Shown here: in pieces, positions 1 to 47,246 of the stretch
Numbering within the stretch: position 1 is the first letter of the stretch
Layout of the letters: each line of letters begins with the position of its first letter
From: Cyanidioschyzon merolae
Taxonomy: Eukaryota
NCBI GenBank assembly: GCA_000091205.1
Contig: AP006487.2
DNA: 64,000 bases
Direction: 5' to 3' (one strand)
Notes under the pieces: model-generated
Told to the model about the DNA's origin: nothing
Database searches by the model: none
Seen by the model: only the letters and a program-made list of their open reading frames with translations
Made by a program: the position numbers and the translations under genes

Positions 1-146
1 CGAATTGATGTGGCACTCAAAATAACAGAAGCAGGGGCATGCGCATGATGAATATGAGCCCACCGAGTCTGCAGCCCATACTGGTGATCGTGTAAGCTGG
101 AACAATTGTATTCCACGCTCAATGGAGCGAGAAAGTTTCGCGACCG

Positions 147-1190
147 ATGGGTAATTATATATCTACCCGCAGACGCCTCCCAGTCTTTTTTGACTGGCCC
201 CCTGTTATCGGTTTCAGCTTCTTCTTGTACACCTCGAGCGTCAAAGGCTGCCCCACGAAGCAGGATTGCGTCAGCTCCTCGTGTCTCGTCTTCAACAACA
301 CACACCATCTGATATTGACGACGGCGTCGAAATCTTGCTTCACAAACTCCTTGCGTTTGTTGCCTCTGATTGGACTCATCAATGCAAGGATTGCTAGAAC
401 TCGTGCCTCTGTGCCACTACAGTCACGTCATTGTCCCCTAGACTAGACACCCTCTCTCGCCCATATCCCTTCTTCTTCGTCAATCGCTCTTCTCCGCTCT
501 ATGGTCGGCGAGAAGAGGATATTTTCGTTGTTTCTCCGACAGCTGGCCACGACGGTCCTCCGGGATCGTCGAATTCCATTTCCATACCTTTGCCATGGAT
601 ATTTTATTTCTTCAAAATGATCGCACTTCTTCATGCCCTCAAGTGAAAACCATTTCTCAGGGAAGAGCACTTGCTCAAGGAAGGCATAATGTGCCCCGGT
701 ACAACCGTGTGCTGCAAGCTTCAGCGATTCCCCGAGTGGAGCGATCTCCACGTTTCACGATAGGAAACACATTCCTACGATGGGCTTGAACCACGGAGCG
801 TATGGAGGAATGAAAAGCAGGTCTGCCCCTATAGCATCCGCAAAAGCCCAAACGCAAGGAGAATGGAAAAATACCACAATTTCCAGTAAAAAAGATATCG
901 CCAGACGTTGGGAAAAGCCTTCAATGGCTCATTGAATTGGGTGCTGTTGTATGAGTCTTCTATAGGTGCGAAACTGATACCGCCAAACGAATCCACTGCA
1001 GCTGGAACAGATGATGTCGTCGTTCTCTTCGAGTTCGATCATATGTACATCGGGCGCCGTGCACTGCGAATACTCACACACGCTTCGATAGTTTCGCCCA
1101 AAGAAAGTCTCATCGACTACAACAAACGAACCGACGTGCGTGGACGTCATAATGATCGCTTATTTCCTGCAAAGCTTTCATTGTGATTTC
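147..1190 (-). mobile_element. Composite decayed repeat, copy 1: Tc1/mariner(IS630)-like DDE remnant (≈600–1190) plus TnpB/Fanzor-like C-terminal tail unit (147–≈600)
   Basis: Minus-strand reading gives 'FVVVDETFF' (DDE_3 first-Asp motif) and 'FIPPYAPWFKPI' (DDE_3 C-terminal PPYSPxLNPIE motif). Then 'VKQDFDAVVNIRWCVLLKTRHEEL…GQPLTLEV' (RD-NAA-NI RuvC-III-like). Terminal 'GGGTAATTATATATCTAC' at 147–164. Confidence 0.6.
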
Positions 1191-2517
1191 GGTGGAAAAT
1201 CGCCGCACTTGAACTAGGACCTTTTTTCAATTGTATTCCAATGTTCACAGGAGCTCACGAGCTAGCTGTCGAGAAAGAGAGATGCCCATTCTGGCTACTA
1301 TCATAGCTTTTGCGTTCCGTAAGCTGATAAACGTACCGTTTTTGTACTATAGACCGAGATCAGTTTTTAGAAATATCTGCTATTGGCGCGGAGCGCATCT
1401 ACTTGTTTCTTTCAGTGTTCCTCAACTATCTGCGTACTGCGGTATACCTGACCAGTAAGACGAGTACAGCCCGCCTTGCACCGTTCAGTACAGTATGTAT
1501 ACCCTACACGCAATTCGTTTACGAAATTTACGGCCTACTGGATACTGATTTCTGTTTCTTTCTCTTTTCTGTCAAATAGCATTCTGTTACACTCAGCTCG
1601 GGTGGAACAAAATTAAGCTAATACCTATGAAGAAACATACTCCGCGGACTCAACTCTTTTCTGTGTTGTTTACGTGGAAAAGTCTATTGGATGCAGACTT
1701 GAGTCATCCGGGGGATATCGTTAAGTGGTGAGCGGGTCAGCGTTTTGCACGAGGGGAGCGTTGACGGATCGCGATTTCTCGTATTGATATCTTACCTGGG
1801 GGTTCCGTACAGTACTTTATCGCATTCCACAAATATTCTATCGAATGCAACAACGAGCACTTGCACTTGTGGCGAACAGAGTGCTCTCCGAAGCGGTCGA
1901 TGAAAAGAAACATGGTCTTAAGATACGTCGCCAGGCGCGAATACGGAGGAATGCACAAGTGGGACCTTCCTGTACATGTTGAGAGTATGTTTTGAGCAAT
2001 GAAGTTCACGTTCACGAATTGAGGTATGAGACGCAGAGGAGTTAGTGTGGGGTTTGTAAGGCACTATAGCATCACGGCTACGTGTCACAGCAATGAAAAG
2101 TGCATCTCTGGTATATGCGCAGAAGATGAATAACGCGAAGCACTCGTTGGTCGCATGGCCTGCATGAGCATGAATTCCCTGGCGAATAGTCGGAAGCAGC
2201 GAAATCGGGAGTTTAACGCTGCCATCAACGTTCTCAGACAGCTGACAAGAGAGCTGGAGGTACAATAGAGACCGGCGTATTCGAAACAAGAAATATGAGA
2301 GAAGAAAAGGAAGCGGTCGCACGAAGTACCCGTCAGGCCACTGTGTATAACAGTGAGAAGGAAGCCAAAGCAAAGAGGTAACACCTACGGTAGGGAACCT
2401 GTCCGATTTTTATCTGACATGATGTAAATTACGCCACAGTTCCAACAAATTTTTAGTATCTCTGCTCGACTTTAGGATACGGGTTTTCGAAAAGTTTTTA
2501 GAAAACCTTTACTTTTA

Positions 2518-3606
2518 GTGTCTTTAAACCTACCAGCGTTTCTCATGGTTGATTTTCACTTGCTGCTCTCGCGACTTTGGGAAAAGCTCGTGCTGACAGG
2601 ACCGGTCACACTCTGCGTAGGTTTGCAGCTGCTGACAACTTTTCGCTCATTTCGGCAGAGTGAAGGTGACCTACTGCTTCGAATTCTTCGCCTGGCCACA
2701 TATGAGCTGCCTTTCTTTATGAATCTCGTCTTTTGGACTTGTACTGCGCTTGCTGCCACGTTGAGCTCCTCGAGCTACACAGATCGCGGCAACTTTCACA
2801 GATCCTCCGTCGCGAGCTTCTCTCTTGGTCTTTTCGTTTTCGTGGATTCTACAAGGTTCATTTTCGAGCACTTGGAAGGGAGTATTTTTCAGAAACGACG
2901 CCTAGCGAGGCCCGTTCAACCCGCGAATGACCCGCACGCTGTTTATATTCACCTAGCATGTATAGCTGTATGTTTAGTATACATCTTCACTTCATTCTGG
3001 AAGAAATGGGGAGTTTTATCGAGTGATGTTACTTTTGTGAACTTTTTCACAGCGCTGATTGTTATCTATGTCAATCGCATCTCATTGGAATTGGCTTGCA
3101 CTGCGCAACAAGCAAACAGTGTCGAGTTTTTCGCCGGATGCGAACTAGCAACAAAACGAGTCCTATTACATGGAATGATATCAGCGATTCTCGGTTTTGC
3201 TGTCATGTGGTTTAATATGCTGCCGATTCTCATGGTAGTCCCTTCAAAACGAACCACGAGACTTGAAATAGCGATCAAGCGTGTCGCAGCACTTCCGGGG
3301 TGCCGTAGAATCATTAGCGCGCTCCTCTGGCGTAACTTAGAGGGGCACTGGGAGGCAGCTGTTTCCATGGCAGTTTGTGATGAACTCAGTCAGCACTTGG
3401 TAGCATCATTGGCAAGGGGTTGCATGAAATCATGCGCAGACGATGTGACATCCATGGCGGTTCTAGAAAGAGAGAACGCTGTGCCCGTCCGTGAAAGTCG
3501 CCAAACTTGTGAGCGCTCTTTCGGTACAGAGCACTTTTTAGATATTGAGCAAGCAAAATCAATTCCGACCGCCTCAACGTGTCTCATGCATAATCATGCG
3601 GAGTAG
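2518..3606 (+). CDS. Hypothetical multi-pass membrane protein (362 aa)
   Basis: Long uninterrupted ORF with several hydrophobic stretches (e.g. IAVCLVYIFTSFW, ISAILGFAVMWFNMLPILMVV). No recognised family motif. Confidence 0.35.
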   Translation: MSLNLPAFLMVDFHLLLSRLWEKLVLTGPVTLCVGLQLLTTFRSFRQSEGDLLLRILRLATYELPFFMNLVFWTCTALAATLSSSSYTDRGNFHRSSVASFSLGLFVFVDSTRFIFEHLEGSIFQKRRLARPVQPANDPHAVYIHLACIAVCLVYIFTSFWKKWGVLSSDVTFVNFFTALIVIYVNRISLELACTAQQANSVEFFAGCELATKRVLLHGMISAILGFAVMWFNMLPILMVVPSKRTTRLEIAIKRVAALPGCRRIISALLWRNLEGHWEAAVSMAVCDELSQHLVASLARGCMKSCADDVTSMAVLERENAVPVRESRQTCERSFGTEHFLDIEQAKSIPTASTCLMHNHAE

Positions 3607-7043: not shown

Positions 7044-7140
7044 CGACTGCTATCGGGACGCCAAACGGCGCCATCAAATTTCAGACTGAGACTGCATTTA
7101 CAGATCACTGGTGGAGCGAAATAGTTTCTGTTCTTTCTAG

Positions 7141-8280
7141 GATAGACTAATATCCACCCGCGGACGCCTCCCGCCCTTTTTTGGTCGCTCCCCTACTACC
7201 GATTCCAGCTTCTCCTTGCACATGTAAACCCTAAGAGGCTATCCCACGTGGTTTGGTCGCTTCAGCTCCTTGGGTCTCGTCTTCAGCACCGCACATCGTC
7301 TGATGCTGCTAGCGGCATTGGAGTCCCTGCTCACGAACTCCAAGCTTGCTCTACCTCTGATGGAAGTCATTCACTGAAGGATTCTTCGAACTCGCGCCGT
7401 CAGTGCTACTTCCTGCTCTGTCAGCTCTCCGTGCTTTTCTATCGCAGAAGCGCTCCGCTGGGTTCTCTCCATCTCGACCTTCTGAAGCGTACACCACAGA
7501 GCATCCCCTCGATTTTTAAAACGAACACAGTTGTTTCTGACCTTATAAACGGACATTTCCGGAGGGAGAAGCACTTGCACAAGGAAGACGGGAATTGCCA
7601 CGGTGTCATCGTGTGCTGAACGCCTCAGTGATTTGCCCGGTGGAGCGATCATTACGTTACGCGACCGAAAATCTTTCTCCGATAGGCTTGAACCATAGAG
7701 CGTACGTAGGACTCAACCAGCTCTTCTCCCCGATAGCATCGGCAAAAGACAAAACGCAAGGTGAATGGTGAAATGCCATGTTTCCAGTAGAAAGACATCG
7801 CCAGACGTCAGGGGAAAGTCTTGAATGATTCAAGGAATTGGGCGCTTTCGTATGAGCTTTCTCTACGAGCGAAGCTGATAGCGCCAAATGAATCCACTGC
7901 AGCTAGAACAGTTGGTAAGCTCGTTCTCTACGAGCTCGCTCGTACACCGAACGGACTCCATCTCCGCGAATAACCAAAAACGCTCTCACCGTTCCGTCTG
8001 AAGAAGCCTTATCGACTGGAAAAACAAACCATCGTCCCTCTGCTTCATATCGATCGCCGAGTTCCGAGAAAGCTGTCGTTGCGATTTTGATGGAAGATGG
8101 CCGTGCGTTGACTAGGACTTTTGTTGCGACTGCATTCCAGTGTTTCCACGGCCACACAAATAAGCTGGTGAGAAACAGTGACGCCCCTGGGAGCCTTCCA
8201 TCGTCGCTTTTGCTCTCCATCAGGTGGTCAGCGGGTCGTTTTCTACCATCGACCGCAAGCACGCTTTGAGGGTATCTGTT
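7141..8280 (-). mobile_element. Composite decayed repeat, copy 2 (Tc1-like remnant ≈7660–8280; TnpB/Fanzor-like tail 7141–≈7660)
   Basis: Colinear with copy 1. 'GDGVRSVYERARRERAYQLF' parallels other copies' 'GDGVCAMYERTCRERACHQLF'. 'LSPTYALWFKPIGERFS' is the DDE C-terminal remnant. Degenerate 'RDSNAASSI'. Terminal 'GGTGGATATTAGTCTATC' (reverse complement at 7141–7158). Confidence 0.55.
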
Positions 8281-9248
8281 TTTGCAGAGCAGCGCATCTA
8301 TTTCTTTCTTTCAGTGTTCCTCAATAATCTGAATACTGTGCCATGACTGGCACGAAGGAGGATTGCAGTGCTCTGTGCACTGTACAGTCAAGATATATAT
8401 CCTACAGGCAATTCTTCTACGAGATATGCGGTACACTGCATCAATAGTTCGATCTCCAGTTATCCACCGCTGTAGCGGTGGTACAAAATGGATTTAAAAG
8501 ACTACAAGTGCAAGCTGCGCGCCATTTACCCGCTCGGTAATCCCTTTAGCATTTGTTCTGACATCGCTGAACGATGGCAGGTTTGCGCGAAAACCGACTC
8601 GTGTCGAGTATATTCCGCGGCGCACATCTAGTCAATGTGGCTTTCTATTCGCTTGCTTAATTCTGAGGAGCGTGTTGCGGAATCCGCATAGAATCCCTCC
8701 CAAGACAAACCCGATGCTTCACATACCGTTGAAGCAGACAGGGACCTCGTACTGCCTTGCTTACTCGATACCACCGAAGGAAAGCCCTCTTTGCAGACAG
8801 TTAATGATCGTCATATCTGTTGCCAATGAGTTGTTCTGCTTGCATGTATAGAACAGTGTCCGCAAATAGTTGTTTGATCGTGACAGGTACGGAGTCGTTG
8901 ATTGTAATGTGACGCTTTACTTCGGCCCCAAACTTCCGCTTCAATAGCCCCTTTGAGATGTTTCAACTCTAAAGGTGCACAGCTTAGAGGGGCTGCCTGC
9001 TTCCATTTTTCCATAGGGTACACTTTCTTCGCCGTACTATTGCCGGAGAATCTTCCGCGCTCGCCGCAACTCGTCGACTTGATTGCAACCAACACAGCAG
9101 CACCCCCAGCACTTTCAGCACTCCCAGCACAGAAGGTTCAGCGCGACGTCTTGCTATTAATGGAAATCGGATAAATGTCACCAGATGCCTATTTTGTTTA
9201 GAGAGACATTTTTATGAACGATGGAAAAATTTTGCGTCCGCGGAGTTA

Positions 9249-10769: not shown

Positions 10770-12974
10770 TCTATGGAGGATCTTTGCGTTGTACGAGTCT
10801 AGACAGGAATGTAGTACAACTCGTGTATCGAATATCGCCATTTCATGCCGGTTGTCGGCTGCTGCAAATGTCCTGTGCAACCTCATCAGCTCGGCATGCC
10901 CCCGGAAGTCGTACATGGCTGGCACGCTTTCGCTCCTCGACAAGGTGATTTTGTTCTTCGGGAAAACGCATCTCAGTGAGAGTGGCTGAACTGGTGTTTT
11001 TGGAGCTCGAAACAGACGCAGCCTGGAAAGGTCTTGCTGCTGGTGGGCTTGGGCTGCCCCGTGTTCAGGCGCCGGCAACAGTTCGTTGCGGTCCAAGCGG
11101 CAGACTCATCAGTTGTGCTTGACTGCCGGACTTTAGCAGCTCTGGCCACTATGGCCGGACTCACAAAGGGTGGATCTGATCAAAGATCATAGTCAAGGCG
11201 AACGCTTTTGCGAGCCAACCTGTTAACAGTTCCAAGGCCTGAACAGAGCGGCGCTCTGCACGGAGTTCGTCTGCAGATGCGGGCATTCGACTCACTGCGC
11301 TTACTTAGGTCTTGTTTAAAACTATTGAACGTGAGGAGAACATGAAATGCGAGACTCGCTTGGCAAGAGAGGATGCAGAAGCGTACTACTGCCCGATACC
11401 ACGCACAGGAGCCATCGAGGAAACGAACATGGTCCTAGCAACCGCTGCAAGCACTTACATTCATATCGGAGTCAAATGAAAACGGCCTGCTTTGCTGACC
11501 TGGGCGTCAAGTTAGAGTCATTTCCAACTGTCACCGAAACCTGGCTATGTGAACGTTTTGGGACGCAGCCCTTTTCATCTCTATTAATTCTGGTTTAAGA
11601 TACGCTAGTCTCCCCCGTCCCTCCCGCTTTGTTATAAGCGGTCGAAATTTGAGGTTGGCAGTATTCAAGTCTCGATTTCGCAGTTTCCCGCTTCTGTCGA
11701 CGCATTGATGCACATGCGAAAGTTGCGATCTACGCATCTCTTGCTAATTGCATCTTCTTTGTATACAGTCTCGCTGCGTTTTCGCAGCCGTGACATTTGA
11801 TTGCGATCAGATGGTCCGATGTGCTACTCACATTTCCTTCATCGAGTGCCGCAGCATGGCGCGAGAAGGCTTCCTTCATCGCTCAGTACATGGCTTTGAC
11901 GAGCGCAGAAGTATTCCCGCGTTGCACTCCTCCGATTCCGCGGCCGGTACGGTATCCTTCGATCACGGTTTCTTCTGAGCTATCCTTTCAGTGATAAACC
12001 TGTCCGCTGCACACGCAAGCGCACGCTGGTCAGTTCGATCGGGGATTTATCTAACGCGTGGCTGTGTATGATGGAACAAGTTCCTACAGAAACATCTCGG
12101 CTGGAGAGCAGCTCGAGAAAATTCGGTCCGTCTTCGCTGCCCTCCTGCGTAGCGGCGACGCACTCTCCGTGGGAATCGATAGCTGCAATGCCTGAAGTCG
12201 GAGTCCAAGATCATTATCCATGGATACAGAGACGACGCGAGCCTCTGCATCCATGTTCTGTTCGAGGGATCATGCTGCCATCGATTAACTCTTCGTCAAT
12301 GGCCGCAAGGAGAGGAAATTTTGCCTCCCGAGAGAAAAAGAGATCATCTGAAGTGACGTTTTCAGTGAACTTCCGACATAGGATTGTGAAGAAGGCCTTT
12401 GGGGCTATTGTCGAGCATGATTCCTCTTCAATCCAGCGGCGCACGCTGCGGCGCCCGGGAGTCGCCTTGGAACAGAAAGATCGAAAACTTGAAGACCGCA
12501 TGATTCGCGCATGCCACAAGTGAGGAAAACAGAATCGTGGATGCTTGAAAGTACAAATCGGGTAACTGTATCGGAAGCTTTACGAGCCATTAGTCGAAGG
12601 TGCTACGAATCACCTTGATTCCTGTGACATACCGAAATCCAGAGGCAGAGCGCCGATGGAGCGCCTCCGAGCCTACGACCAAGAATCCTACGAATACGTA
12701 TGAATCCGTGCCCCCTCATTGCTGGCCGTCGAATGTCGGGGCTATTCACTTACCAAAATTTTGGGAAAACGATCAAAAGGCAGGTGCAGTGCGATTAGTA
12801 TTGTGTTCCACAGTGATATGAAACCGGTTCGGAATGAGGAGCACGTGCTCGCGCAGTCTGGATCCCCGGATCGAAAGACGGCTTGATGCAGGTGATGACG
12901 CCTTTCGCCTCAATCGTGTTCCACAATCAGATGCGTGTAACCACATGGGTTTTCGCGTTGTATGGCAGATGGGT

Positions 12975-13468
12975 TAGAAGTGCGTTCATTTTCGAAAACA
13001 AAAAAAAATCCAAGGGAAAGGTATGGACGTGAAATTCGGAGGTCCTGAACCGCCGTCATCGCCAGGTTCGAAGACGAAACGAAACAATCCTCTTCTCGTC
13101 GACCATGAACCGAACAAGAGCAAGTAGTGACCACGATGAAGACGAGAGGATATAAGCGAGAAAAAAGTTTTGCCCAACGGGACGACGACGAGACTGTAAC
13201 GACACAGAGGGCGCGGGTTCGAGGAATCCTCGCACTTATGAGATCAACCAGAAGCAATAAACACATGGCGTTCGTGAACCGAGACTTCGACGCCGCCATC
13301 AATATTGAACGATGTGTTGCGCTGAGGAAAAGACCCGAGGAGCTCGCGCAATCTATCATTGTGGGACAGCCTTTCAGGCTCGAAGTGTGAAGGAGAAGTT
13401 GAAGCCCATAGCAGTCGGTCGGTCAAAAAAGGCTGGACAGCGTCTGCGCATGGGTATTAATTTACCCT
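12975..13468 (+). mobile_element. TnpB/Fanzor-like tail unit only, copy 3
   Basis: 'MDVKFGGPEPPSSPGSKTKRN…' N-terminal stub, then 'KHMAFVNRDFDAAINIERCVALRKRPEELAQSIIVGQPFRLEV'. Ends 'GGGTATTAATTTACCC' (13452–13467). Confidence 0.6.
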
Positions 13469-13985
13469 GCATGGTCGTCGGACATTTTTTGTTCCGCTGA
13501 TCTTGCGTATGCTCTAAATCGGGTACAGCGCCTAAGCGTGTCGGATCGTGATCCCCTACAGACATCGCGCGCGAAGGTACCCCGAATGCAATTACCGCGT
13601 CATCGATTGGGATTCTCCATTCTGATACGGATTGTTCAGCGAATCAGAACAGCATGGTCGTGAAAAAAAACATACGGGCTCTCGGTGCAGAGCTGCGCAT
13701 GCAAATTTCCCCTGGTCGGAAGTCGCACTCGCATGCGGAATGATACAAGATGCCTGAAAACGGAGTTCTTTGGTGTACCACGCATAGCGGACATCTCGTC
13801 CGAGAGCGTCCATGCATACTTACATTCCATTCTTGTCGTATATCGTGGAGATGATGCAGGCGATACAATTTCCGGCCCTGGAAGACGTTGACAAATTGAC
13901 TTGGAGCTTGCCTGGGAGGGCTTCAAGCAGAGCTTGTCTGTTCCGCGGGCGATAGCAGCCTCGTACGATATTCTTGAGGACCGCT

Positions 13986-14462
13986 TCATACGGTGGTGCC
14001 TTCCGCTATATCGAAACGGAAATCGGCACTGAGCTTGCTTCCGTTTGTTGAGAAATGAACGAGAAAATAAACGAAACTATAAAGCAGGTAGAAGAACAAG
14101 AGCGCGAAGCAGCCCAGTTTCACTTGGCTTTGCCTCCTCGCCAGCGGAAGCACATTGAACGCACTCGTGCTTTCGAAAACGTGTCGATGCTGCATCCAAC
14201 GTTTGACGTTAAGGTACACCAGAGGGGCTAGCGTTAAACCTACGATCCAGTGGCCGCCAACCAGCAAGACCGCGCACAGTAGTCCCTCTGCAGAATATTC
14301 AGGGACAACGAGCTTGTTCAAGTTTTCTGTAAACTCTATCGGATTTACATAGTCTTGTTCCAAATCTTTGCAAAGAATCAAAAACATAATATTTATGAAC
14401 AAAATCCCAACCGTAAGCGTGAAACTTATGAGCCAATACAATATCTGAAAAGCTATAGACAT
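13986..14462 (-). CDS. Cornichon-family ER cargo receptor (Erv14/CNIH-like), 158 aa
   Basis: 'DLEQDYVNPIEFTENLNKLVVPEY' matches the cornichon signature 'DELKTDYKNPID…LNPLVLPEY'. Three predicted TM segments and the typical length. Confidence 0.7.
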   Translation of the reverse strand: MSIAFQILYWLISFTLTVGILFINIMFLILCKDLEQDYVNPIEFTENLNKLVVPEYSAEGLLCAVLLVGGHWIVGLTLAPLVYLNVKRWMQHRHVFESTSAFNVLPLARRQSQVKLGCFALLFFYLLYSFVYFLVHFSTNGSKLSADFRFDIAEGTTV

Positions 14463-14519
14463 TGCTTCGATTCAACAAGCGAAATTCAATCCTTTACATT
14501 TGGTTGCGCTGTGTACCAA

Positions 14520-15868
14520 GTAGTCGAAATCAATATGCGATCCATCCTCTGGATCGAAGGCGAATTGCCTGTAGGATATATGTTTTAATGAAAAGTGCAA
14601 GGATAACTGTATTCCTCCTTCAGGTCAGCGATACCACAGTACCTAGATGGTTGAGGAACACTGAAAGAAACAAGTAGATGCGCTCGACGCTAAAAATCGA
14701 TATTCACAAAGCGTACTTAAAGTCAATTTTAGAACAAGACCCGTTGGTAACCTTATGGGACGCAAACGCGACGATAGCAGCCTCAATGGGCGTCTCTTTT
14801 TCTCAACCGCTTATTCGTGTGCGCCTGATAACACTGAGATTCGCTCGCCAAGAAGAGTCCTAGTTCAACCAAAGCTATCTTCCACTGGAATCGCAACGAC
14901 AGCGTTCCTGGAACGTCGCTATCGGTGGGAAGCGCAGGGACATCGGTTTGGTTCACTCGATGTAACTTTGATCTGACCAGATGTTCGGACCGTATATAGG
15001 TATTCGCCGAGCAGGACTCCCATTGTATGCACGATCGAACACGAAGAGAACGACAACATCATCTGTTCTAGCTGTCTTGGACACATTTGGCGGCCTCAGT
15101 TTCGCTCGTCGCGAAGGCTCATACAACAGCACCTACCACTTTGTCGAATCGTTGAAGGCCTTTTCGTTTGCATCCGAGCTTTTGCCAAGTCTATCGGGGA
15201 GAACTACCGTTCATTCCTGCGTACACTCCGTGGTTCAACCTCACAGAAAGAAGTGATTTCTATCGTGAAAAGTAATGAGCGCTCCACTGGGTGAATCGCT
15301 GAAGTCTTCAGCGCGGTGACACACAGGGACATATTTCATCTCTCATTGGCAAATCCGTGTCGCTCAGAGAAGGTCCTGACCTAAGGGCATCAACAATTGC
15401 GTTCATTTGAAGAAAGAAAAAGTCCAAGGGAAAGGTGTGGACATTGAAGTCGAGGATCCTGGAGCCCGGTCATCGCCAGCTGCCGGGAGAAGAAAAATCT
15501 CTTCGCGCGGACCATCGAGCGAAGAAGATCAAGCGACGAAGAAGAGGAAGGAGATAGGCGAGAAAAGGTTACGCCTGACGGGACGATGACGAGACTGTGG
15601 TGGTACAGAAGGCACGATTTCTAGGATTCCTACGAGTCCTGCATCCCAACAACGACAATGCACACAGTGAGCTCATAGGCCGAGACGTCAACGCCGTCAT
15701 CAATATCAGACGATGTGCGGTGCTGGACATGAGATTCGGCGAGCTGACGCAATCCAACTTTGTGGGGCAGTTTCTCAGGCTCGAAGTGTAAGGAGAAGCT
15801 GAAGCCGATAGAAGAGAGCCGTTCGAAACAGACTGGGAGGCGTCTGCAGGTGGATATTAATTTACGCT
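14520..15868 (+). mobile_element. Composite decayed repeat, copy 4 (Tc1-like HTH/DDE remnant 14520–≈15390; tail unit 15395–15868)
   Basis: 'HPLDRRRIACRIYVLMKSARITVFLLQVSDTTVPRWLRNTERNK' (HTH-like), 'IPAYTPWFNLTERSDFYRE' (DDE C-terminal remnant). Tail 'MKKEKVQGKGVDIEVEDPG…ATKKRKE' plus 'LIGRDVNAVINIRRCAVL…GQFLRLEV'. Ends 'GGATATTAATTTACGC' (15852–15867). Confidence 0.6.
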
Positions 15869-16752
15869 GGACTGCAAGAACCAAATCTAACCGCTTATTA
15901 GCAACTCCATAACAATGCCGTTCGACCTGTATGTTAAGAGTTGAAAGGGGGAAAAAGTTTCCATATTTTCGAAAGTTTGCCCTCCAGGCACATGGCCCCG
16001 CAAGCCCGACGAGTATGCCGGCGAATGCTTCAAGCTCTCCCTGGTGGCAGGTGCTTTAATGAGATCTAACCAGCTAGTCCGATACGCAGTTTATTTTGGG
16101 ACTAGGAGAGGATATGATATGTCTGAGCGGCGGCCTGGCCGCAGTGGACTCCTAGTATATCGCTTTCCGCTGCCGCAGACAGTACGTCTGTCTGCACAGC
16201 TCTCAGACTCCCAGAATGAATACGCACTTCGAGTCCGTGTCAGATGCACCACGCCTCGAGCCGACGCCCTTAACGGTATGGCAATGCTGTTCTGCCTCTA
16301 TGTTGCATCCGCACCCGCGCTATAGCCGCTAAGGCGGGTGCTCATGGCATGCTCGGCGCACGATAGAACAACGAAACGACCAGTACATCCGAGAGTTAGT
16401 ACGGGGAATGGAACTTGAAGGTAAGGTGCATCATGATGGACGCTTTCCCCGAAGCGAATATCCATCCCGCAATCTGGGATCCATTGTCAATCTAAAGGTT
16501 TTGTCAAAAACAATTGCTGCGCGGATCGGCCGTGAACATACACGCGTGCCATAGAGCTTATCTATGGATTATCACAGGAGAAAAGTCGTTTGTTTTGTCC
16601 AGACACTTGCAGGGACCAGAAGAACTTACAGGTCAGGACTAGCAGTATCAGAGCGAACGAGAACAGCGATCAAACACTTTGTGTCGTTTCCACAAAAGTT
16701 TAATCGAGTGGAAAGCAGGTTGCACGAGATTTCAGCTGTTGCAGGTGTCCTT

Positions 16753-20662: not shown

Positions 20663-23600
20663 AACCGCTGCGAGTCGCGAGAGCACCAATGTTGGCCCCT
20701 TCTTTCCATGGAGACCGGCAGGATGCAGTGCTGGTTGCGGGCGCGGTTTGTAGCCAGATGACGTGCTGTTCGGGCAATACAGTCTTTGGAGTTGCAAAAA
20801 GCAGTCCGCTGTACTCTTGCAGGTGACTTTTAATGCTGTATTAAGATGCACGGGAAGTGGACCCATCTTAAATGCCTCATCCCTGCTGCGAAGAACAAAG
20901 AACGGCATCGTGTGCACTCGTTGAGGCGATGCAGCTTCGCAGATTCTAGCGAGAATATGATTGTTCTTGAGACGATCGCGAGCTCCTCATAGAGCCCTTC
21001 AGAGCTCGAGTTTCTCTTGAGACTTGCTGTATTCTAATATATCGCTGTGACGCCTATTGCGAGCTGAGATGTGGAAGCGAGCGAGTATATACTTAATAAT
21101 ATTGACTAATGGAACTCCAATCTTGTTTTTCAATTGCCAAGAATAATCATCCGCAGTGTGTATATACGATGCGTGAATCTTGCTGTGTCGATGAGCATTA
21201 GCGTAAAAATGCCTTGCCCCAGGTGAGTATCCAATACTCTCTCTTCTGCATACTGATGTTTTTACCGGAATTCTTCTGCGTATCAGCACGATGCTCGCTC
21301 TGAGTACGAAACGATTACGTCGAAACCTCGTCCGCCACAAAAGCCGCTGAAACCTCCCGAAGCACGTGCCATTTCCGGTAAACGACCGTGGCGTTAATGC
21401 CGCGGGGCATAAAGAGCTCGCGTGCATTTTTGCTCGAGGAAAGACTCCATCGCGAGCCTACCCGCCTCGATATCCCCGCCATCTGATGCTCGGTCAGCTT
21501 CCCGTACACCATCTCGAGCGCCCGGCTCTGTTTCACGCTTTACTTCTCTACCAGTATCAGCGTGCACCCGTGCTCGCCATGCACGTGTGTCGCCCTGAGC
21601 GCATCGGTAGGACTCGCACAGAATCCATTCCTGTACTCGTTCTACGCGCTCATCGAAGGCGCAGGTGTGCAGTCTTTCCATGCATAGCATGTCCAGCGCT
21701 ATCGGCTTGCGCCCAGCAACTCTACCTATGGTTCATTTCCTTGACCATTTCGATGAAGAGTTTCTCGAAAGCGCGATTATTCCTTCTGTAGACACGAAAA
21801 TGTTGGTGATCCCGACACGGTCTCATGTAAACCTGCGAAAGCTCTTTCGCATGAGCCATATTATGGATGAGTAATATCTGGATGCAGCGCACAAAGCATC
21901 CGCCTCTATTCGAGGCTGCCACCACTGCGTCTATGTGGGTCTTGGCGCCATTCTTGTACTTAATCGCGTCTCCTGGTGACCTTCATACCTGACTCCAGAT
22001 AATATCGAGCCTTGAGGAAGCTTAGCAGGGGCGCTTGTGTTCCTTTTGAGGTCTTTGGTTGCCTCCTCTTGAATTGGAGAAACGGCTATGGCCATGACAC
22101 CCTTCAAACAGGGAACAAAGCTTACCACGAAGTCTTTCTCATCATTTGTCTTGAACGGTTGAGAATGGGGCAACTTGGTCAGTTCCGGCAAAGGTATCTT
22201 GAAGTACATGCAAGCGAATATTCAGGGAGTCTCCATTGTCACAGTAAACTTGCGTACATTTTCCCTGTAGACGAGAAACCTTGAACGAGCTCGGCCAGCG
22301 CTCTTCTCGAAGTCATTTGAATGCTTCTTGCTTACAGAGACCAGCAGCAACTAACTACTCGGGCCATGCAATTTAGTAAATAAGTGTCCACCGTGGTATA
22401 CTGGGTCTTTACGTGACGTGCGTGGACCCCATCCAGTAGGCGCTGTATCTCACTTTTAAGAACAGTCTCCCCGATAATGTGTTCCAGTAGGTAGCCCATG
22501 AAAACGGTCCCAGCATTACCTTTCCGCTCCGCGAGTACCTCATTCCTGTCCTTCGTCGTCCTCTTTTCGGAAGTATCTTTCTCATATTGGTCCGGGAGAT
22601 TCTTCTTCTTCCCTTTTCCTTTGGGTTGCTTCAAGGATTTTGTAACTGTACCCCATATCCGTTTTCATCTCGAGACTAGATCATACTCGGTGGACGCTCG
22701 GACTGCATCTCGCCTGTTCTACACATGTGCATAATATTTCTCATGCACCTGTTCGTCGTGATCTCGGTTAAGAGCACGCGCATGGACCGAAGCACGCTTT
22801 TCCGGTCTCTGTTGCGCGCGGATAGAGAAGCAACACATCAGTCCACGGCTGGCAAACGTTAAGAGCAACCGGTCGACGAAAGATTTGTGGAAAACGTTTG
22901 GTGAAAAGGGTGCAAACGACTCGTCTTTTGATCCGTGAGCGTGAAACTGGCTTTAGACAACGGAGGCGAATCCTTCGCCTGGATGGAGCTGCGTAAGAGA
23001 GGCTGGCACGAAGAGCAGCCCCTTGCGCATCCCACCTGCGCACTTGATGAGCGCTTGAGTGCTGTTGGAGCTTGCGTTGACTGGGAGCAAAAAAGAGGAA
23101 TTTTAAAAGAAAAGCCACGAATTTCTTCGAAGAAGAATTTGGTATAGAACAATGCTGTCTGTTTGGCGAGCAGTAGGCGAACGTATGATTGAATCGCCGC
23201 CATGGCTGCATTCGTCGCAAAGCTCGCTTGTCTTGTTATACCGAACAGCGATTTGCTCTTCTTTGACCATCCATATATTGCCCAACAACTTCTCCAACAC
23301 AAATTCCCATCAACTGAAACGCACAATTGTGCCTCAAGTAACATGCGTTCACGTTTCAGTACGAAATTGATTATACGTGTTGTTCAGTGCGTGACGGTCT
23401 CCCATTGAAGTCTGCCATTTCTCCTCTGTCCGTGGCTCTTCATCACTATTCGTATCAACGGTAAGGAAATTTCGCATCCAGTGGCTCCTTTGATAGCACT
23501 TCTCAGAGAACGTATAGAAAGGAATGGAGTGACGAGGAGACTGCTGCGAACACAGAGTTCAATAATTTCTGTTTTGGGAGCACCATGTTGAGGATTCTTA

Positions 23601-23944
23601 CTGCGAGAAGGGTGGTTCTTCAACCTGCTGACCGAAGAATCACTGAACTGCACATGTGAATCCGTTTCTTTCAAGCTTGCATTGAGTGTATAAAGCCCTT
23701 CCGTAACCGTTCCCCTATCTGCAGGATGTACACCTTATGCCGAATGCCTGAAAAAACAAAAACCAAACGGGTGCGTGTTGGTGCATGTGTTCTAGAATTC
23801 TCTGTTCTGTATCTAACGCCGCACATATACCAAAACGTTCAAGCGGAGACTCAGTGCGGCACGCGGAATGCAGAGAGGCTCTGAAAATGAAGCGCATCTT
23901 CAATTTAACTCCAATCCTGGATTCGAATTTCTGAATGAAATTAC

Positions 23945-29317: not shown

Positions 29318-29799
29318 ATTTGCTAGAAGCGAAAACGTCGCTAAACAAGAAGAAAGCTATCGCAAGTGCGCAGACGATTGAATCGCAAGAAGTAACGACT
29401 CTTGACGATCTTTTCCACCAGCTGAGCTTCTTTTCCTCAAGAAATAGAGCCTAGCTTGCTCAAGGTAGTGGAGGCGTTGTCTAGGGCGCTTTCTGCTTGC
29501 GCCAGACGCACCGCTCAGTTGGGATTATTGCCGCCGCAGGTACACCTCCGTTCCTTTTCCGAGGATATGCAAAATGCCACTACGGTTTGTAGTCGTCCAC
29601 GAACCGGTTGCATGGAAGCGCTAGGCTTTTGCGCAGTACGCACAGAAGACGGTAGTGTTGTCCGCTCTGACTGGCTCAGTCTCAGCGAATCATAGGCATA
29701 TGGCGCGCAGGAGAGAGCATTACCACTTGTAAGTTGCTATAGTCATTCAAATCAATTGTTTTCACCCGAGCTGCGATGTATAGCCGGAGATCGTAATCA

Positions 29800-31211
29800 T
29801 GATGCAGTGTAGAGTACAGACTATAGACGAGCTGCCTGGTGGATCTGTTCTTCACTGAAAAGTGCATGGAGGTCTGCATTCCTCCTTCAGCTCAGTTATG
29901 CAACAGGACTCAGATGGCTGAGGAACTCTGAAACAACCAAGAATACGCGCTCCGCGCCAAAAGCCGATATTCTCGAAGACTGGATGCGGTCAATGGTAGA
30001 AAACCACCCGTTGATCACCTGTTCTGGAAGGAAATAGCGACGATAGTAGCCACCATGGGCGACTCTGTTTCCCACCAGCTTGTTCGTGTGGTGCTGAAAA
30101 CTCTAGGGTACAGTCGCTAAAGAGAGTCCGGGTCCACGCATGGCCATCTTCCACCGGCACCAAAATGGCAGCGTTCCTGGAACTCAGCGATCAGTATGAC
30201 GTCCACGGACGTCGGTTTGTTTTTTCCCAGTCGATGCGGCTTCCTTCGGACGAGGCGGTCGGTGCGTTTATGGGTATCCTCGGAGATGGCGTCTGTGCTA
30301 TGTACGAACGAACTTGTAGAGAACGAGCATGTCATCAACTGTTCGAGCTGCAGTGGATTCTTTTGGCGGCCTCAGTTTCGCTCATAGACAAGACACATAC
30401 AAGAGCAGCAACGAATTCGTCGAATCACTGAAGACGGTTCTCTGACGTCTTCTGACAACCCTCTGTTGGACAACGTGACATTTCACGATTCTTCTTGCGT
30501 TCGAGTCTCTGCAGATTCTGTTGGAATAGAGCCGCTTTTCATTCCTCCGTACGCGCCGTAGTTTAACGCCATCGAAGAAGTCTTTCTTATCGTCGAACGT
30601 GGTGATCGCTCCACTGGGCGAACCGCTGAAGCTTTGAGCATATGCTGACACAGGAGCATACTCCTTCGTTGTTTTTCAAATCCTTCTGCCATCGGGAAGG
30701 TCCTCAACTGAGCTCAAAAAACAAGTGCGTTCATTTTAAAAAATAAATAATCCAAGGAACAGTTATGGACATTGAAGTCGAGGATTCTAGAGGCCTGGTG
30801 TCGCCAGGTTCGAAAAAGAAACGAAAAATCCTCTTCTCGCCGACCATCGAGCGAAGGACAGCATATGCTGAAAAAAAAGAGAAAATGAGGTGAGATAGGC
30901 GAGAAAAAGTGTATACCCGACGGGACGATGACGAGACTGTAGTGGCACAGAGGGCGCGAGTTCGAGGACTCCTTGCACAAATGAGCTCCACCAGCTGCAG
31001 TAAATGCTTGGAGTCCGTGAACCGAGATTATAAGGCTGGCACCACTATCAGACGATGTCTGGTGCTATAGACGAGACCCGCGGAGCTGACGCGAGCCAAA
31101 TTTGTGGCGCAGCCTCGTAGGGTCAAGGTATACAAGTAGACGCTGACGCCGACAGTAGGGAGCGGGTCCAAAATGTCTGGAAAGCGTCTACGAATGGATA
31201 TGTACATATCT
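29800..31211 (+). mobile_element. Composite decayed repeat, copy 5
   Basis: ~97% identical to copy 7 over ~780 bp (29850–30645 vs 58530–59320). 'PVDHLFWKEIATIVATMGDSVSHQLVRVVLKTLGYSR' (HTH_Tnp_Tc3/IS630-like). 'GIEPLFIPPYAP*FNAIEEVF' (DDE C-terminal motif with a stop). Tail unit from 30716 with 'MDIEVEDSRGLVSPGSKKKRK' and a degenerate RuvC-III region. Confidence 0.6.
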
Positions 31212-31447
31212 TGTATTGTAGCGGAGCATTTCCTCTTCCACTGACGATGTATGTGTAAGAACTGTGTTCGCACGTTGCTGTTCATCACAACATCCCGTGC
31301 AAGAGTCGTAGGCCGCAAATGAGGTGATCGCAGTTGTATACAAATTTGTGTAATATCCACAAAAGGTCGCCTGCGCACGCACCCGACTGGGAATTTGAAC
31401 GTCGCGCTTCGTTTCCTGTAATACACCAGGATCGTTTCGAACTTTTC

Positions 31448-34320: not shown

Positions 34321-35070
34321 ACCGGGACCCAAACAGTACCGAAGAAATCCCGTTTGGGTAAGGTGAGAAAGCGCAAGTCGAGATCATCGGTGACCAAGTC
34401 ATAACCCGAAAATGGTTTTATTACGCGCTACCCGAAGCCTTTACATTCAAAAGTTACAAAGCGTCTCATATATTTCTTTCCTTTTCGGTCCTTGAAGCCT
34501 TCCGGGGGAATCATTCCAAACCATCAAGTATTGTTACAAAATTGTTGTCTCTGTTTCATAGCGAGTTTTTCCATACGCGTTTTCCAGTGATTTCGAAGAC
34601 TACTTTGTCTGCGTTATGCACAGACAAACCTGAGCTGGCCTACTCATAGCGAAACTACAGAATGTGCGGAAGAAAGCCGCCGTCCGGTCGCTCTGCAGCG
34701 AGTCGATGCACTAAGTTCGTCTCTTGTGTACATCGGCCCCAGTGCACATCTCTCTGAGTGGTATATCAAGACATGCCACATCGTTTCGCTCTTGTCAACG
34801 AAAATGAGGATGAGTATGCGTGGCAGAGAATGCGAAAGTGTGCAGTGACACAATCGCTGGGCTAAAGCATGCTGGCAATGAACGTGTTGTAAATCTTCTA
34901 TTTCTGCGAAAAATCATCGACGACATGCAAATCGAAGTTCACCGCGTGCATCGACGACACCGTCGTTGAGGCCGACTTCGAGAGTCACGCCGATACCTGC
35001 ATGCAGAGCGGCTCATCCGAGGAGCGCGTTTCCTCACACATGGAGGCGCGTGATAGTGCTCCAACTGCAT

Positions 35071-35964
35071 CTAGTATGCCATCATTGAGGCTGACGGCGA
35101 CGGCGACGGCGACGGCGACAGCGAGGCTGACATATGCACACGTATCACGTCCGCGTCCGCCAGCGCATCTACCACGTTCAGACGCATATGGTGGCTCCCC
35201 GAGTGCATCGACGACATCATCATCGACGGCGACGGCGAGGCCGACATGTGCACACGAAGCAGCTCATCCGCCACAAGTGCATCATCTAGGCTCAGGCGCA
35301 TGTGGTGGCTCCCCGAGTGCATCGACGACATCATCATCGACGGCGACGGCGAGGCCGACATGTGCACACGAAGCAGCTCATCCGCCACAAGTGCATCATC
35401 TAGGCTCAGGCGCATGTGATGGTTCCCCGAGTGCATCGACGACATCATCATCGACGGCGACGGCGAGGCCGACATGTGCACACGAAGCAGCTCATCCGCC
35501 ACAAGTGCATCGTCTAGGCTCAGGCGCATGTGGTGGCTCCCCGAGTGCATCGACGACATCATCATCGACGGCGACGGCGAGGCCGACATGTGCACACGAA
35601 GCAGCTCATCCGCCACAAGTGCATCGTCTAGGCTCAGGCGCATGTGGTGGCTCCCCGAGTGCATCGACGACATCATCATCGACGGCGACGGCGAGGCCGA
35701 CATGTGCACACGAAGCAGATCATCCGCCACAAGTGCATCGTCAAGGCTCAGACGTGAGCCATATAAACCATACGACGAAGAAGTTGTTGTCGTTGTGGTT
35801 GTTGGCGAGGCCGACGGCGACGGTGAAGGCGACGGTGAAGGTACTAAGATCGGATGCAAGACGGTGCGGTCCTGATTTATCCACAACGGCAGAGCAAGCA
35901 CGTTGCAACTGCAGAGAACAGTGCAGATCACGAACACACAGATGATATTCTTTGCAATCGACAT
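35071..35964 (-). CDS. Putative secreted Ser/Met/His-rich tandem-repeat protein
   Basis: Signal-peptide-like start 'MSIAKNIICVFVICTVLCSCNVLA'. It is followed by about 5.5 copies of a 38-aa unit 'HMRLSLDDALVADELLRVHMSASPSPSMMMSSMHSGSH' encoded by the 114-bp tandem array. ORFs are open on the opposite strand too (a low-complexity effect), so the strand call rests on the signal peptide. Confidence 0.4.
   Translation of the reverse strand: MSIAKNIICVFVICTVLCSCNVLALPLWINQDRTVLHPILVPSPSPSPSPSASPTTTTTTTSSSYGLYGSRLSLDDALVADDLLRVHMSASPSPSMMMSSMHSGSHHMRLSLDDALVADELLRVHMSASPSPSMMMSSMHSGSHHMRLSLDDALVADELLRVHMSASPSPSMMMSSMHSGNHHMRLSLDDALVADELLRVHMSASPSPSMMMSSMHSGSHHMRLSLDDALVADELLRVHMSASPSPSMMMSSMHSGSHHMRLNVVDALADADVIRVHMSASLSPSPSPSPSASMMAY
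35128..35760. repeat. 114-bp tandem repeat array (~5.5 units)
   Basis: Units start at 35190, 35304, 35418, 35532 and 35646, near-identical. Preceded by (GACGGC)n at ~35095–35130. Confidence 0.9.
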
Positions 35965-46800: not shown

Positions 46801-47246
46801 ATACACCCTCGATAGTTGTAGGTCATTTTTCGTTTCTTTGCCTGTGTGTATGATGTGCATGTGTATCGTGAGCCGACGCCCTCCGTCGCACGGCAAAACC
46901 GTTCTGTCTCCGTGCGACGACCGCACCGGCGCTACAGGCGCTATCGCGGACGCTACCGGCAGGCATTCAGCAGATAATGGAACCTACGGAACGACAAGTA
47001 TACCCGGGAAGAAGTATCAGTTATGGAATTTGAAGGTAGGTGCAGAACGATAGGTGCTTCGCCGCGCGCTGATAGCGAGCGCACAGTCGCGGAAAGCCGG
47101 CCTGCGTCAACAATTTGTCAAGTACGAAAATCCCTGCCGCAGACGCTGCGGCGCGCGCACAGTGTAGGTATTCCGTCCCGCGCCGCTAACTCTAGTTAGT
47201 TCATGCTGTGCGTTGGACGAACCCGGACCAAGTATACAATAGAGTA

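Follow-up and report, generated by a model that had tools for sequence, protein, structure and literature searches.

Decayed, internally deleted repeats on chromosome 5 of Cyanidioschyzon merolae as probable copies of the Fanzor1 transposon family CMe-1/CMe-1A

The window, a stretch of 64,000 nucleotides from chromosome 5 of Cyanidioschyzon merolae 10D, carries seven copies of a dispersed repeat that encode the decayed end of a Fanzor1 protein. Of eight ORFs from the window that were looked up, seven are exactly matched by C. merolae 10D proteins, CME065C, CME072C and CME076C among them. Seven copies had been proposed by a sequence-only reading of this DNA, and a blastn search of the region 12940-13500 against the window recovers them all at or near the positions it gave, on the minus strand at 149-630 and 7139-7405 and on the plus strand at 12940-13500, 15395-15869, 30723-31244, 46401-46834 and 59533-59798. 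The matches are 67-72% identical to this query region (E = 2e-17 to 4e-70), the peptides quoted in the earlier reading are all found in the window, and a regular expression for the motif RD-NAA-NI finds exactly seven sites in the six-frame translation, compared with a mean of 0.07 in 100 shuffled sequences. A tRNA scan of the window found none.

The copy singled out in that reading, c3 (12905-13502, plus strand), is a short, doubly deleted element with no transposase gene. Its left end is followed by a leader, an N-terminal stub of Fanzor1 with an ATG near 13022, a deletion junction near 13198 and the RuvC-III motif NRDFDAAINI at 13280, after which comes an AT-rich palindromic stretch, GGGTATTAATTTACCC, ending at 13467, and then a right-end region that continues to ~13502. 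The remaining six copies are longer and each contains a decayed DDE_3 transposase gene. Four of them are of a long type A that combines the stub with a C-terminal fragment of Fanzor1: c1 (117-1618, minus strand; transposase gene ~703-1544; leader, stub and C-terminal fragment 149-632), c4 (14459-15869, plus strand; transposase gene ~14534-15320; stub and fragment 15391-15869), c5 (29749-31246, plus strand; transposase gene ~29801-30647; stub and fragment 30718-31246) and c6 (45332-46843, plus strand; transposase gene ~45406-46245; stub and fragment 46318-46843). The other two are of a long type B with no stub: c2 (7106-8494, minus strand; transposase gene ~7607-8442) has a C-terminal remnant of aa ~612-728 at 7140-7536, and c7 (58401-59831, plus strand; transposase gene ~58475-59323) one of aa ~612-721 at 59436-59831. 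Two of the copies have a further repeat, TE-N2_CMe, adjoining their 3' ends on the minus strand, with a copy at 15876-16506 beside c4 that is 81% identical to positions 4-635 of the CMe-1A consensus, and a fragment at 46870-47059 (consensus 65-252) beside c6.

The repeat had been described as a unit of ~500 bp, which is wrong for six of the seven copies, as c3 alone is genuinely short. In the other six, homology extends ~950 bp further upstream, therefore the repeat is ~1.45 kb long, with the proposed unit forming only its 3' third and the 5' part being a decayed IS630/Tc1-mariner DDE_3 transposase gene that was overlooked. A consensus stitched together from this upstream region matches Pfam DDE_3 with E = 7.1e-17 (62.1 bits against a cut-off of 28.6) and also has a weak match to HTH_Tnp_Tc3_2; the presence of this adjoining gene makes the element Tc1/mariner-type. 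At the other end the unit was thought to stop at 'GGATATTAATTTACCC', but homology goes on for ~35-45 bp beyond this, up to '...TTTTTCGTTTCACTGA'.

That the short units are internally deleted derivatives, with the N-terminus of the protein fused to its C-terminus, was correctly recognised. One in-frame deletion is common to five copies and joins aa 1 to ~57 to aa ~644-734, the junction of 'DDDETVVAQ' with 'RARVRG' being found in all five stub-bearing copies of the window and also in the metagenome proteins P0001, P0008, P0015, P0020 and P0026. The consensus of the deleted unit is one continuous ORF of ~150 codons that runs from the stub through RD-NAA-NI. The stub itself ('MDIEVEDPG...') had been ascribed to every unit, which holds for five and fails for the copies at 7141 and 59398 (c2 and c7); these carry a second deletion and have kept more of the native C-terminal region ('LGCTLQRVEME...'). 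The pattern is reminiscent of internally deleted non-autonomous DNA transposons, on the Ds/Ac principle or MITE-like, where a single deletion is followed by amplification of the shortened element, and as in Ds/Ac-type derivatives the ends are retained and coding capacity is lost. Unlike these, the window family has no recognisable terminal inverted repeats (TIRs), its deletion happens to be in frame, and several derivative types, with or without the transposase gene, coexist and recombine.

The identification of the fragments as the RuvC-III and C-terminal end of a TnpB-like Fanzor gene is borne out by profile, fold and motifs. The RuvC-III motif (R-D-x-N-A-A-x-N-I) lies near the C-terminus in all seven copies, variously decayed, and in 40 diverse relatives its R, D, N, A and N are invariant, with A and I near-invariant. 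Full-length relatives also possess RuvC-I (G-x-D-P-G) and RuvC-II (D-E-F-R-T-S), the RuvC-I aspartate and the RuvC-II glutamate (D-E-F/Y-R/K-T-S/T) being seen in CMe-1, P0172, P0310-P0313 and P0271, which is an intact 752-aa protein of the CMe-1 lineage; D420 and E591 are invariant in the alignment of the 40 relatives (A5), and the RuvC D-E-D triad is invariant in the full-length relatives. The seven units in the window are without RuvC-I and RuvC-II because the deletion removed these regions. It might be argued that the likeness to RD-NAA-NI is coincidental and that the repeats derive from a protein family other than TnpB, as Pfam gives no significant TnpB/OrfB match for the fragments, for longer fragments or for full-length CMe-1 (the best match for fragments and CMe-1 is Cas12f1-like_TNB, E = 0.28-0.51), and a phmmer search of CMe-1 against PDB sequences finds nothing, a family profile being needed. 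With that profile the sole match in the PDB is SpuFz1 (8GKH, E = 7.6e-4), which aligns across RuvC-I, II and III, and an AlphaFold (AF2) model of the 698-aa relative P0311 (pLDDT 67) has SpuFz, GtFz and PpFz as its top seven Foldseek matches (E = 5e-14 to 8e-11), with Cas12 proteins next. Fanzor is the only family to which full-length members align, and on this combined evidence of profile, fold and motifs a non-TnpB origin is effectively refuted, with a negligible probability.

A C4 zinc finger, which is included in the family motif of Bao & Jurka (PMC3627910) and which the sequence-only reading expected in full-length copies, is absent from the CMe-1 lineage. No CxxC pairs occur between RuvC-II and RuvC-III in CMe-1, P0271 or P0310-P0313, and 101 of 110 close clade representatives have no C4 zinc ribbon, with nine of the 40 relatives giving a weak match to Pfam Cas12f1-like_TNB (best E = 5.6e-5). 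To judge from these sequences, the missing finger is a lineage-specific loss, and as the other hallmarks of a Fanzor are all found its absence is no ground for exclusion. The stub is rich in K and R ('GKKRKT...KTKKQKRE' in CMe-1), and from this composition an NLS-like role is plausible. Compared with the characterised SpuFz1, GtFz1 and PpFz1 (PDB 8GKH, 9CER-9CF1; PMC11423790), to which the P0311 model aligns with TM 0.42-0.63, the lineage shares the RuvC D-E-D triad, a size of ~600-750 aa and a basic N-terminus, although sequence identity is just 13-16% and the C4 zinc ribbon is missing in CMe-1. With bacterial TnpB (IS200/IS605, IS607) it has in common the RD-NAA-NI form of RuvC-III and the overall TnpB/Cas12 fold class; it differs in having a eukaryotic host and, as its partner, a DDE_3 enzyme rather than TnpA (HUH or serine recombinase), and its protein, which has a long N-terminal extension, far exceeds bacterial TnpB in size and falls below the threshold for Pfam OrfB/TnpB.

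The family is already known and is not new. It was described from C. merolae as CMe-1/CMe-1A, with ~150 genomic copies, by Bao & Jurka (2013, Mob DNA 4:12, PMC3627910) and counts among the first families on which Fanzor1 was founded. The sequence-only reading was right in its interpretation and did not recognise that the family had been published in 2013 for the same genome. When the window was compared by blastn and tblastn with the CMe-1A consensus (3169 bp) and the CMe-1 protein (734 aa), both taken from the supplements of PMC3627910, five units mapped to 869-969 plus 2840-3084 of CMe-1A and two to 2738-3084; for c3 the matching segments are 800-897 (window 12910-13006) and 2840-3084 (window 13207-13447). 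DNA identity to CMe-1A is 76-78% for the family consensus over 800-969 and 2738-3084, which cover the leader and N-terminus and the final 245 bp of the gene, and 67-78% for individual copies, and the C-terminal fragments are still 48-56% identical to the CMe-1 protein despite their decay. Homology between the short type, the long type and CMe-1A extends to their left ends (p < 0.001), and CMe-1A and the window family are alike in being old, multi-copy and without obvious TIRs. The CMe-1A consensus begins with TE-N2_CMe and keeps the whole 734-aa gene without a transposase, whereas the window copies have an internally deleted Fanzor gene and, in six of seven cases, a DDE_3 gene that is absent from the 2013 description; their 3' tails also diverge from that of CMe-1A past '...GGGAGGCGTCTGC'. 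As both the 3' tail and the internal structure differ, the window family is a related subfamily or deletion derivative and not CMe-1A proper.

It is apparent that all copies in the window are pseudogenes under neutral decay. The statement that no intact ORF is present was accurate, with stops or frameshifts in all copies, and mismatches occur at rates of 0.185, 0.186 and 0.204 at the first, second and third codon positions (chi-square p = 0.25). Present-day activity is expected of nothing in the window. The fusion of the basic N-terminal stub with the RuvC-III and C-terminal tail, ~150 aa in length, could conceivably be a functional small protein under selection, such as one that regulates Fanzor1 or acts as its dominant-negative partner; with two of the three RuvC catalytic motifs missing, it cannot be a nuclease. 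The open frame of the family consensus and the still-open ORFs of 150-160 aa in the metagenome copies P0008 and P0026 would fit such a role, but substitutions are spread evenly over the codon positions and nearly all copies of the fusion ORF, including all seven in the window, have stops or frameshifts. Selection on the fusion ORF is rejected by the codon-position test, and the idea of a selected protein is exceedingly improbable.

The assignment to Tc1/mariner does not come from the ends of the repeats. TIRs are undetectable in the seven-copy family and in CMe-1A, direct and inverted comparison of the ends of the family consensus gives p ~0.06-0.08, comparison of the family ends with the TIRs of the four sister-lineage elements described below gives p >= 0.02 before correction for 16 tests, and an nhmmer profile of these TIRs recovers the ends of the two such elements in the window and no others. 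No TA or other target-site duplication is demonstrable in the seven-copy family, whose boundaries are too blurred to read one, and several TIR or target-site proposals made by eye were dropped as unsupported. Bao & Jurka reported likewise for CMe-1A, leaving it with the remark 'TE classification is unknown' (PMC3627910). With no demonstrable TIRs or target-site duplications in the seven copies, the assignment is based on the linkage to a DDE_3 gene and on a sister lineage.

Members of this sister lineage are found both in the window and in metagenomes, and the seven copies of the earlier reading are not the only Fanzor-bearing ones in the window. The first of two divergent copies, D1 (49906-53325, plus strand), is a Mariner-type element of full size (3.4 kb) in an advanced state of decay, with TIRs at ~49901-49938 (left) and 53286-53326 (right), a transposase fragment at 50286-50528 and a Fanzor1 remnant at 51166-53130 that corresponds to aa 52-702 of the relative P0310; it has 37-44 stops per frame. 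The second, D2 (21088-23800, minus strand), is similarly decayed and its left end was not located, with a transposase remnant at 22878-23734, a C-terminal Fanzor1 remnant at 21354-21860 and a right TIR at 21094-21126; transposase remnants are present in D1 and D2 as well as in six of the seven copies. The TIRs of D1 and D2 are of the type seen in two metagenome loci: L004 has an intact 301-aa DDE_3 ORF and an intact 702-aa Fanzor, P0310, between 28-bp TIRs, and L005 is arranged in the same way between 32-bp TIRs, the arms starting and ending with TA in both. The metagenome elements may, at a guess from the C. merolae host, have a thermoacidophilic origin. Within the CMe-1 lineage proper no copy was found to combine an intact transposase with a full-length Fanzor, and among 85 loci no intact transposase of that lineage, that of the sister element L004 being the only intact one. 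L004, L005 and D1 have the layout of the Mariner-type PUl-1 of Pythium ultimum (Bao & Jurka 2013, PMC3627910), in which a Mariner/IS630-like transposase gene is followed by Fanzor1 on the same strand, the whole element being ~3.4-3.6 kb long; their TIRs are ~24-32 bp with TA at the outer ends, and the likeness of the transposase to that of PUl-1 was judged by eye. The seven-copy family departs from Mariner-type elements in having no demonstrable TIR or TA duplication.

It could be that two unrelated elements, one with the Fanzor fragment and one with the DDE_3 gene, were brought side by side by nested or adjacent insertion, with the Fanzor element belonging to a TIR-less class, as Bao & Jurka left it, and both the missing TIRs and target-site duplications of the seven-copy family and the lack of a transposase gene in CMe-1A (PMC3627910) would agree with this. 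However, the colinear arrangement of transposase and Fanzor is common to six window copies and many metagenome loci at a uniform divergence of ~70%, the left-end sequence ahead of the transposase shares homology with the left end of the transposase-less forms, L004, L005 and D1 have both genes inside one TIR pair, and PUl-1 has the same published layout, which makes chance juxtaposition very unlikely. The linkage to DDE_3 and the intact TIR-bounded metagenome relatives therefore place the family with the Mariner-type Fanzor1 elements.

Alongside the observed homology, architecture, shared junctions and neutral decay, a history of the family can be outlined. The ancestor was very probably an IS630/Tc1-mariner transposon of ~3.4 kb encoding a DDE_3 transposase of ~300 aa for cut-and-paste transposition and, downstream on the same strand, a Fanzor1 of ~700-730 aa, the eukaryotic homologue of TnpB and a putative ωRNA-guided RuvC nuclease carried as a passenger, which, by analogy with TnpB and characterised Fanzors, may have helped the transposon to persist through RNA-guided cutting. 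Deletions then gave rise to derivative types that were amplified, presumably mobilised in trans by a family transposase. Type A (c1, c4, c5, c6) arose by in-frame removal of Fanzor aa ~58-643, fusing the stub to the last ~90 aa, and type B (c2, c7) by joining of the leader to aa ~612, and the transposase-less forms comprise the c3 type, which is short, and CMe-1A as published, with its full Fanzor gene.

Whether the right end of the repeats encodes an ωRNA, as the earlier reading proposed, was addressed by folding and covariation searches, which gave no conserved structure. A role for this end would allow the deletion derivatives to be 'guide-only' hitchhikers that keep their last ~270-350 bp as an ωRNA scaffold, with Fanzor1 supplied in trans being loaded with the derivative RNA and promoting retention or homing. 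In characterised TnpB/Fanzor systems, the 3' end of the gene and element is where the ωRNA is encoded (PMC11423790), one common 3' segment of at least 270 bp is kept by both independent deletion types (A and B) and by the transposase-less forms, and the 3' regions of the consensus sequences have a slight folding advantage over shuffled sequences (z = -1.87 for the family, -2.15 for CMe-1A). Set against this, single-sequence folds of the 3' ~320 nt are insignificant (z = -1.45 for c3, -1.48 for L004 and +0.16 for L005), RNAalifold on 19 copies yields just a 4-bp hairpin (-1.28 kcal/mol), Rfam has no match in the whole window, conservation falls from the coding part to the 3' tail (19% against 37% mismatch to the consensus) and the argument from retention draws on two independent deletion events only. 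A hairpin proposed by hand from the AT-rich palindrome, GGGTA...TACCC, has 71.6% pairing and no advantage over shuffled columns, which reach 71.3%. A guide-only role is thus unlikely. It is similarly doubtful that the Cyanidiales Fanzor1 lineage (CMe-1 and relatives) is a zinc-finger-less clade on IS630/Tc1-mariner transposons whose abundant deletion derivatives persist through retention of an ωRNA-coding 3' end; if true, the derivatives would be guide-only parasites of both the nuclease and the transposase supplied in trans.

Taken as a whole, the seven repeats are very probably inactive, neutrally decaying, internally deleted copies of an old Tc1/mariner-type Fanzor1 transposon family, CMe-1/CMe-1A. 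A motif-level reading of raw sequence can therefore correctly spot Fanzor/TnpB remnants, although the importance of this is limited. L004, with its transposase and 702-aa Fanzor1, is a sensible candidate for testing a Fanzor of the lineage. What is added to the published family is its physical linkage in C. merolae to a DDE_3 transposase gene of the IS630/Tc1-mariner type, its existence as a set of deletion derivatives with shared junctions, and the apparent loss of the C4 zinc ribbon from the CMe-1 clade of Fanzor1, which has kept the RuvC triad.

The seven repeats of this C. merolae 10D stretch are a correct rediscovery of a family already published for the same genome, the Fanzor1 family CMe-1A of Bao & Jurka (2013), described there with about 150 copies, a 3169-bp consensus to which they are about 80% identical, a 734-aa protein, no TIRs and undetermined TSDs (PMC3627910). 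When 12940-13500 was used as a blastn query on the window it recovered the other six copies at 67-72% identity (E 2e-17 to 4e-70), the homology being colinear across a seven-way alignment, and every peptide quoted in the sequence-only reading is found in the window. A regular expression for RD-NAA-NI matches exactly the seven sites, with a mean of 0.07 over 100 shuffles, thus the observation is far above chance.

To place the units, the CMe-1A consensus DNA and protein (CMe-1) were taken from the supplementary files of PMC3627910 and compared with the window. Five units fuse CMe-1A 869-969 (leader end plus aa 1-55) to 2840-3084 (aa about 645-728) and two consist of 2738-3084 (aa about 612-728), with the family consensus 76-78% identical to CMe-1A over those segments. 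As separate segments are joined, the earlier description of the units as internally deleted derivatives is right. The stub 'MDIEVEDPG...' had been placed in each unit and is indeed present in five copies, those at 7141 and 59398 having instead about 35 extra native residues 5' of the C-terminal fragment ('LGCTLQRVEME...'). All five copies with the stub, and several ORFs from metagenomes, have the identical junction '...DDDETVVAQ|RARVRGLLAL...', so the deletion happened a single time and amplification of the shortened element followed. Its consensus is a single open frame of ~150 codons, which means that the deletion kept the reading frame. Eighty metagenome loci retrieved by means of the C-terminal peptide sort into the same structural classes as the window copies, namely long type A (with stub), long type B (without stub), a common short type of about 560 bp, and full-length CMe-1A-like. 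Copies of TE-N2_CMe, the repeat with which the CMe-1A consensus begins as published (its initial 635 bp), directly abut two units at their 3' ends and are reversed in orientation, at 15876-16506 (-) against c4 and at 46870-47059 (-) against c6; this adjacency recurs, with the same junction apparent by eye in metagenome locus L023.

The units are not limited to Fanzor sequence, and the adjoining transposase gene was overlooked in the sequence-only reading. Comparison of longer flanks found ~950 bp more common sequence upstream in six of the seven copies, giving a repeat of about 1.45 kb. The upstream consensus, stitched across frameshifts, matches Pfam DDE_3 (E = 7.1e-17, 62 bits, cut-off 28.6) and weakly a Tc3-type HTH; it is an IS630/Tc1-mariner transposase, encoded on the strand that also carries the Fanzor remnant. 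An accidental nesting of the two genes would also place them side by side, but it is rejected because the same layout is shared by two metagenome elements (L004 and L005), by two divergent elements of the window (D1 and D2) and by the published Mariner-type Fanzor1 elements such as PUl-1 (PMC3627910), the two-gene layout of PUl-1 being that of the long C. merolae copies. The left end that precedes the transposase in the long copies has homologous counterparts at the left end of short copy c3 and at CMe-1A ~786-870 (p < 0.001); both c3 and CMe-1A therefore derive from one common ancestral layout by deletion of the transposase. Within the transposase part a 785-bp tract is 98% identical between c5 (29857-30640) and c7 (58532-59316), the rest of these two copies being about 70% identical and of different deletion types, a pattern suggestive of recent gene conversion, or of patchwork recombination, between dispersed copies separated by 28 kb.

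The sister lineage includes an element that appears intact. L004 (metagenome contig Ga0102930_1005964) is a 3454-bp unit (3-3456) with an intact DDE_3 ORF of 301 aa (53-958), an intact Fanzor1 ORF of 702 aa (P0310, 1146-3254) whose stop is separated from the right TIR by about 175 non-coding nt, and 28-bp TIRs (TATACTCTGTGCATTGAATAATGAAACA) whose outer ends are TA; since it looks intact it could be autonomous. L005 (420-3810) is arranged in the same way, with P0311 (698 aa) and TIRs of 32 bp, its transposase being broken. Within the window D1 (about 49906-53325, +) retains part of the transposase, aa 52-702 of the Fanzor and a TIR at each end, and D2 (about 21088-23800, -) a transposase remnant, a C-terminal Fanzor remnant and the right TIR. 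Both are heavily decayed, have TIRs of the L004/L005 type and are only 24-40% identical in amino acids to CMe-1 and relatives, and this divergence means that the window holds at least two Fanzor1 lineages. For the seven-copy family and CMe-1A no TIRs or TSDs could be demonstrated when the consensus ends were compared with each other, with the sister-lineage TIRs and with an nhmmer TIR profile, in agreement with Bao & Jurka on CMe-1A (PMC3627910). This is in line with a survey of 41 species that reports MITEs in every one except C. merolae (PMC3964958). The case for Tc1/mariner membership is therefore made by the linked DDE_3 gene and the TIR-bearing sister lineage.

That the fragments are the C-terminal end of a TnpB-like/Fanzor protein is upheld by profile, predicted fold and catalytic triad together. 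For this divergent lineage neither a Pfam TnpB/Fanzor assignment nor a single-sequence PDB match was obtained, and a 96-aa C-terminal consensus matched short metagenome ORFs only. Longer metagenome ORFs give the upstream context 'VVGADPGNTNI ... LVVAYGAG ... VDEFRTSYTHHELGCTLQRV ... NRDFNAAINI', which is the order of RuvC-I, II and III in TnpB-like proteins. Full-length CMe-1 as query recovered intact relatives, namely P0271 (752 aa, 71% identity), the roughly 700-aa P0310 and P0311 (42-43%), and P0312 and P0313 (31-33%). A profile of these relatives had a single match in the PDB, the Spizellomyces Fanzor 8GKH (E = 7.6e-4), in an alignment that brings together all three RuvC motifs, and with an AlphaFold model of P0311 (mean pLDDT 67, pTM 0.53) the best seven Foldseek matches in the PDB were SpuFz, GtFz and PpFz structures (E 5e-14 to 8e-11, TM 0.42-0.63), Cas12 proteins ranking next. 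An exhaustive profile search puts the clade at 3670 cluster representatives (50% identity, E <= 0.001); in 40 diverse representatives the RuvC-I D, the RuvC-II E and R/D/N/A/N of RD.NAA.NI are invariant, so the RuvC-I and II motifs sought in full-length members are there.

The zinc finger also expected in full-length members is a different matter. The 2013 Fanzor1 motif includes a C4 zinc finger between RuvC-II and III. CMe-1 and relatives have none, and of the 110 clade representatives possessing both flanking motifs 101 likewise lack it, with no Cys pair between the two. A Cas12f1-like_TNB match was found at E < 0.01 in nine of the 40 diverse representatives, under Pfam's own threshold. In the CMe-1 clade (P0314-P0461) the zinc ribbon position is occupied by a linker of about 41 aa with '(V)RGLLWC.ST'. 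Because profile, fold and catalytic triad all agree, the absence is treated as a lineage-specific loss.

At the other end of the unit, 'GGATATTAATTTACCC' had been taken as the terminus; homology runs about 35-45 bp beyond it, therefore the motif is near the right end and not at it. Nor did the 3' end yield the conserved ωRNA-like fold that was proposed. Folding z-scores of the 3' ~320 nt are unremarkable (c3 -1.45, L004 -1.48, L005 +0.16, family consensus -1.87, CMe-1A -2.15), RNAalifold on the last 140 nt of 19 copies found only a 4-bp hairpin, Rfam has zero matches across the whole window, and conservation is lower in the tail (37% mismatch) than in the coding part (19%). A palindromic GGGTA...TACCC hairpin was rejected, as it pairs in 71.6% of cells and in 71.3% in shuffles. 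Decayed copies serve this kind of test poorly, so these results do not refute the idea, and a 3' ωRNA is something we infer from TnpB/Fanzor knowledge (PMC11423790). A sole hint speaks for it: the two independent deletion types have retained the same 3' segment of 270 bp or more.

All copies in the window are dead, and they are old and decaying neutrally. Every one has stops or frameshifts, D1 has 37-44 stops per frame, and among 85 loci only L004, of the sister lineage, has an open transposase frame. Over 94 codons of 25 non-redundant copies, mismatches to consensus occur at rates of 0.185, 0.186 and 0.204 at the three codon positions (chi-square p = 0.25), with no sign in this test that the 150-aa fusion ORF is maintained.

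C. merolae is a unicellular red alga with a compact genome and few introns, and the dense long ORFs of the window fit this. Seven of eight long ORFs looked up are exact matches to annotated C. merolae 10D proteins, including CME065C, CME072C, CME076C and chorismate synthase, which places the stretch on chromosome 5; no tRNA genes were found in the window. The nine Fanzor-related elements together take up roughly 15 kb, about 24% of the 64 kb. Unrelated to them are dispersed repeats at 38310-38910 and 43959-44559 (98.5% identity over 601 bp) and at 48946-49626 and 60062-60740 (91.7% over 684 bp), and a roughly 66% identical family at 12430-12689, 44837-45203 and 49545-49908, one copy of which stops exactly at the left TIR of D1. 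Self-comparison also found tandem arrays at 35110-35754 (period about 114 bp, inside ORF 35001-35945) and 61975-62294 (period about 82 bp).

The sequence comparisons establish that all copies descend from a common ancestor with a two-gene layout, that deletion junctions are shared, that deleted forms were subsequently amplified and that decay has been neutral. From established knowledge, the DDE_3 enzyme would transpose the element by cut-and-paste and deleted copies would be mobilised in trans. The basic N-terminus is a putative nuclear localisation signal. By analogy with transposon retention by TnpB, Fanzor1 may be an ωRNA-guided RuvC nuclease from which the element profits. What is added to the published family is incremental: its Mariner-type linkage, a catalogue of deletion derivatives, a clade without the zinc finger and an intact metagenomic relative.
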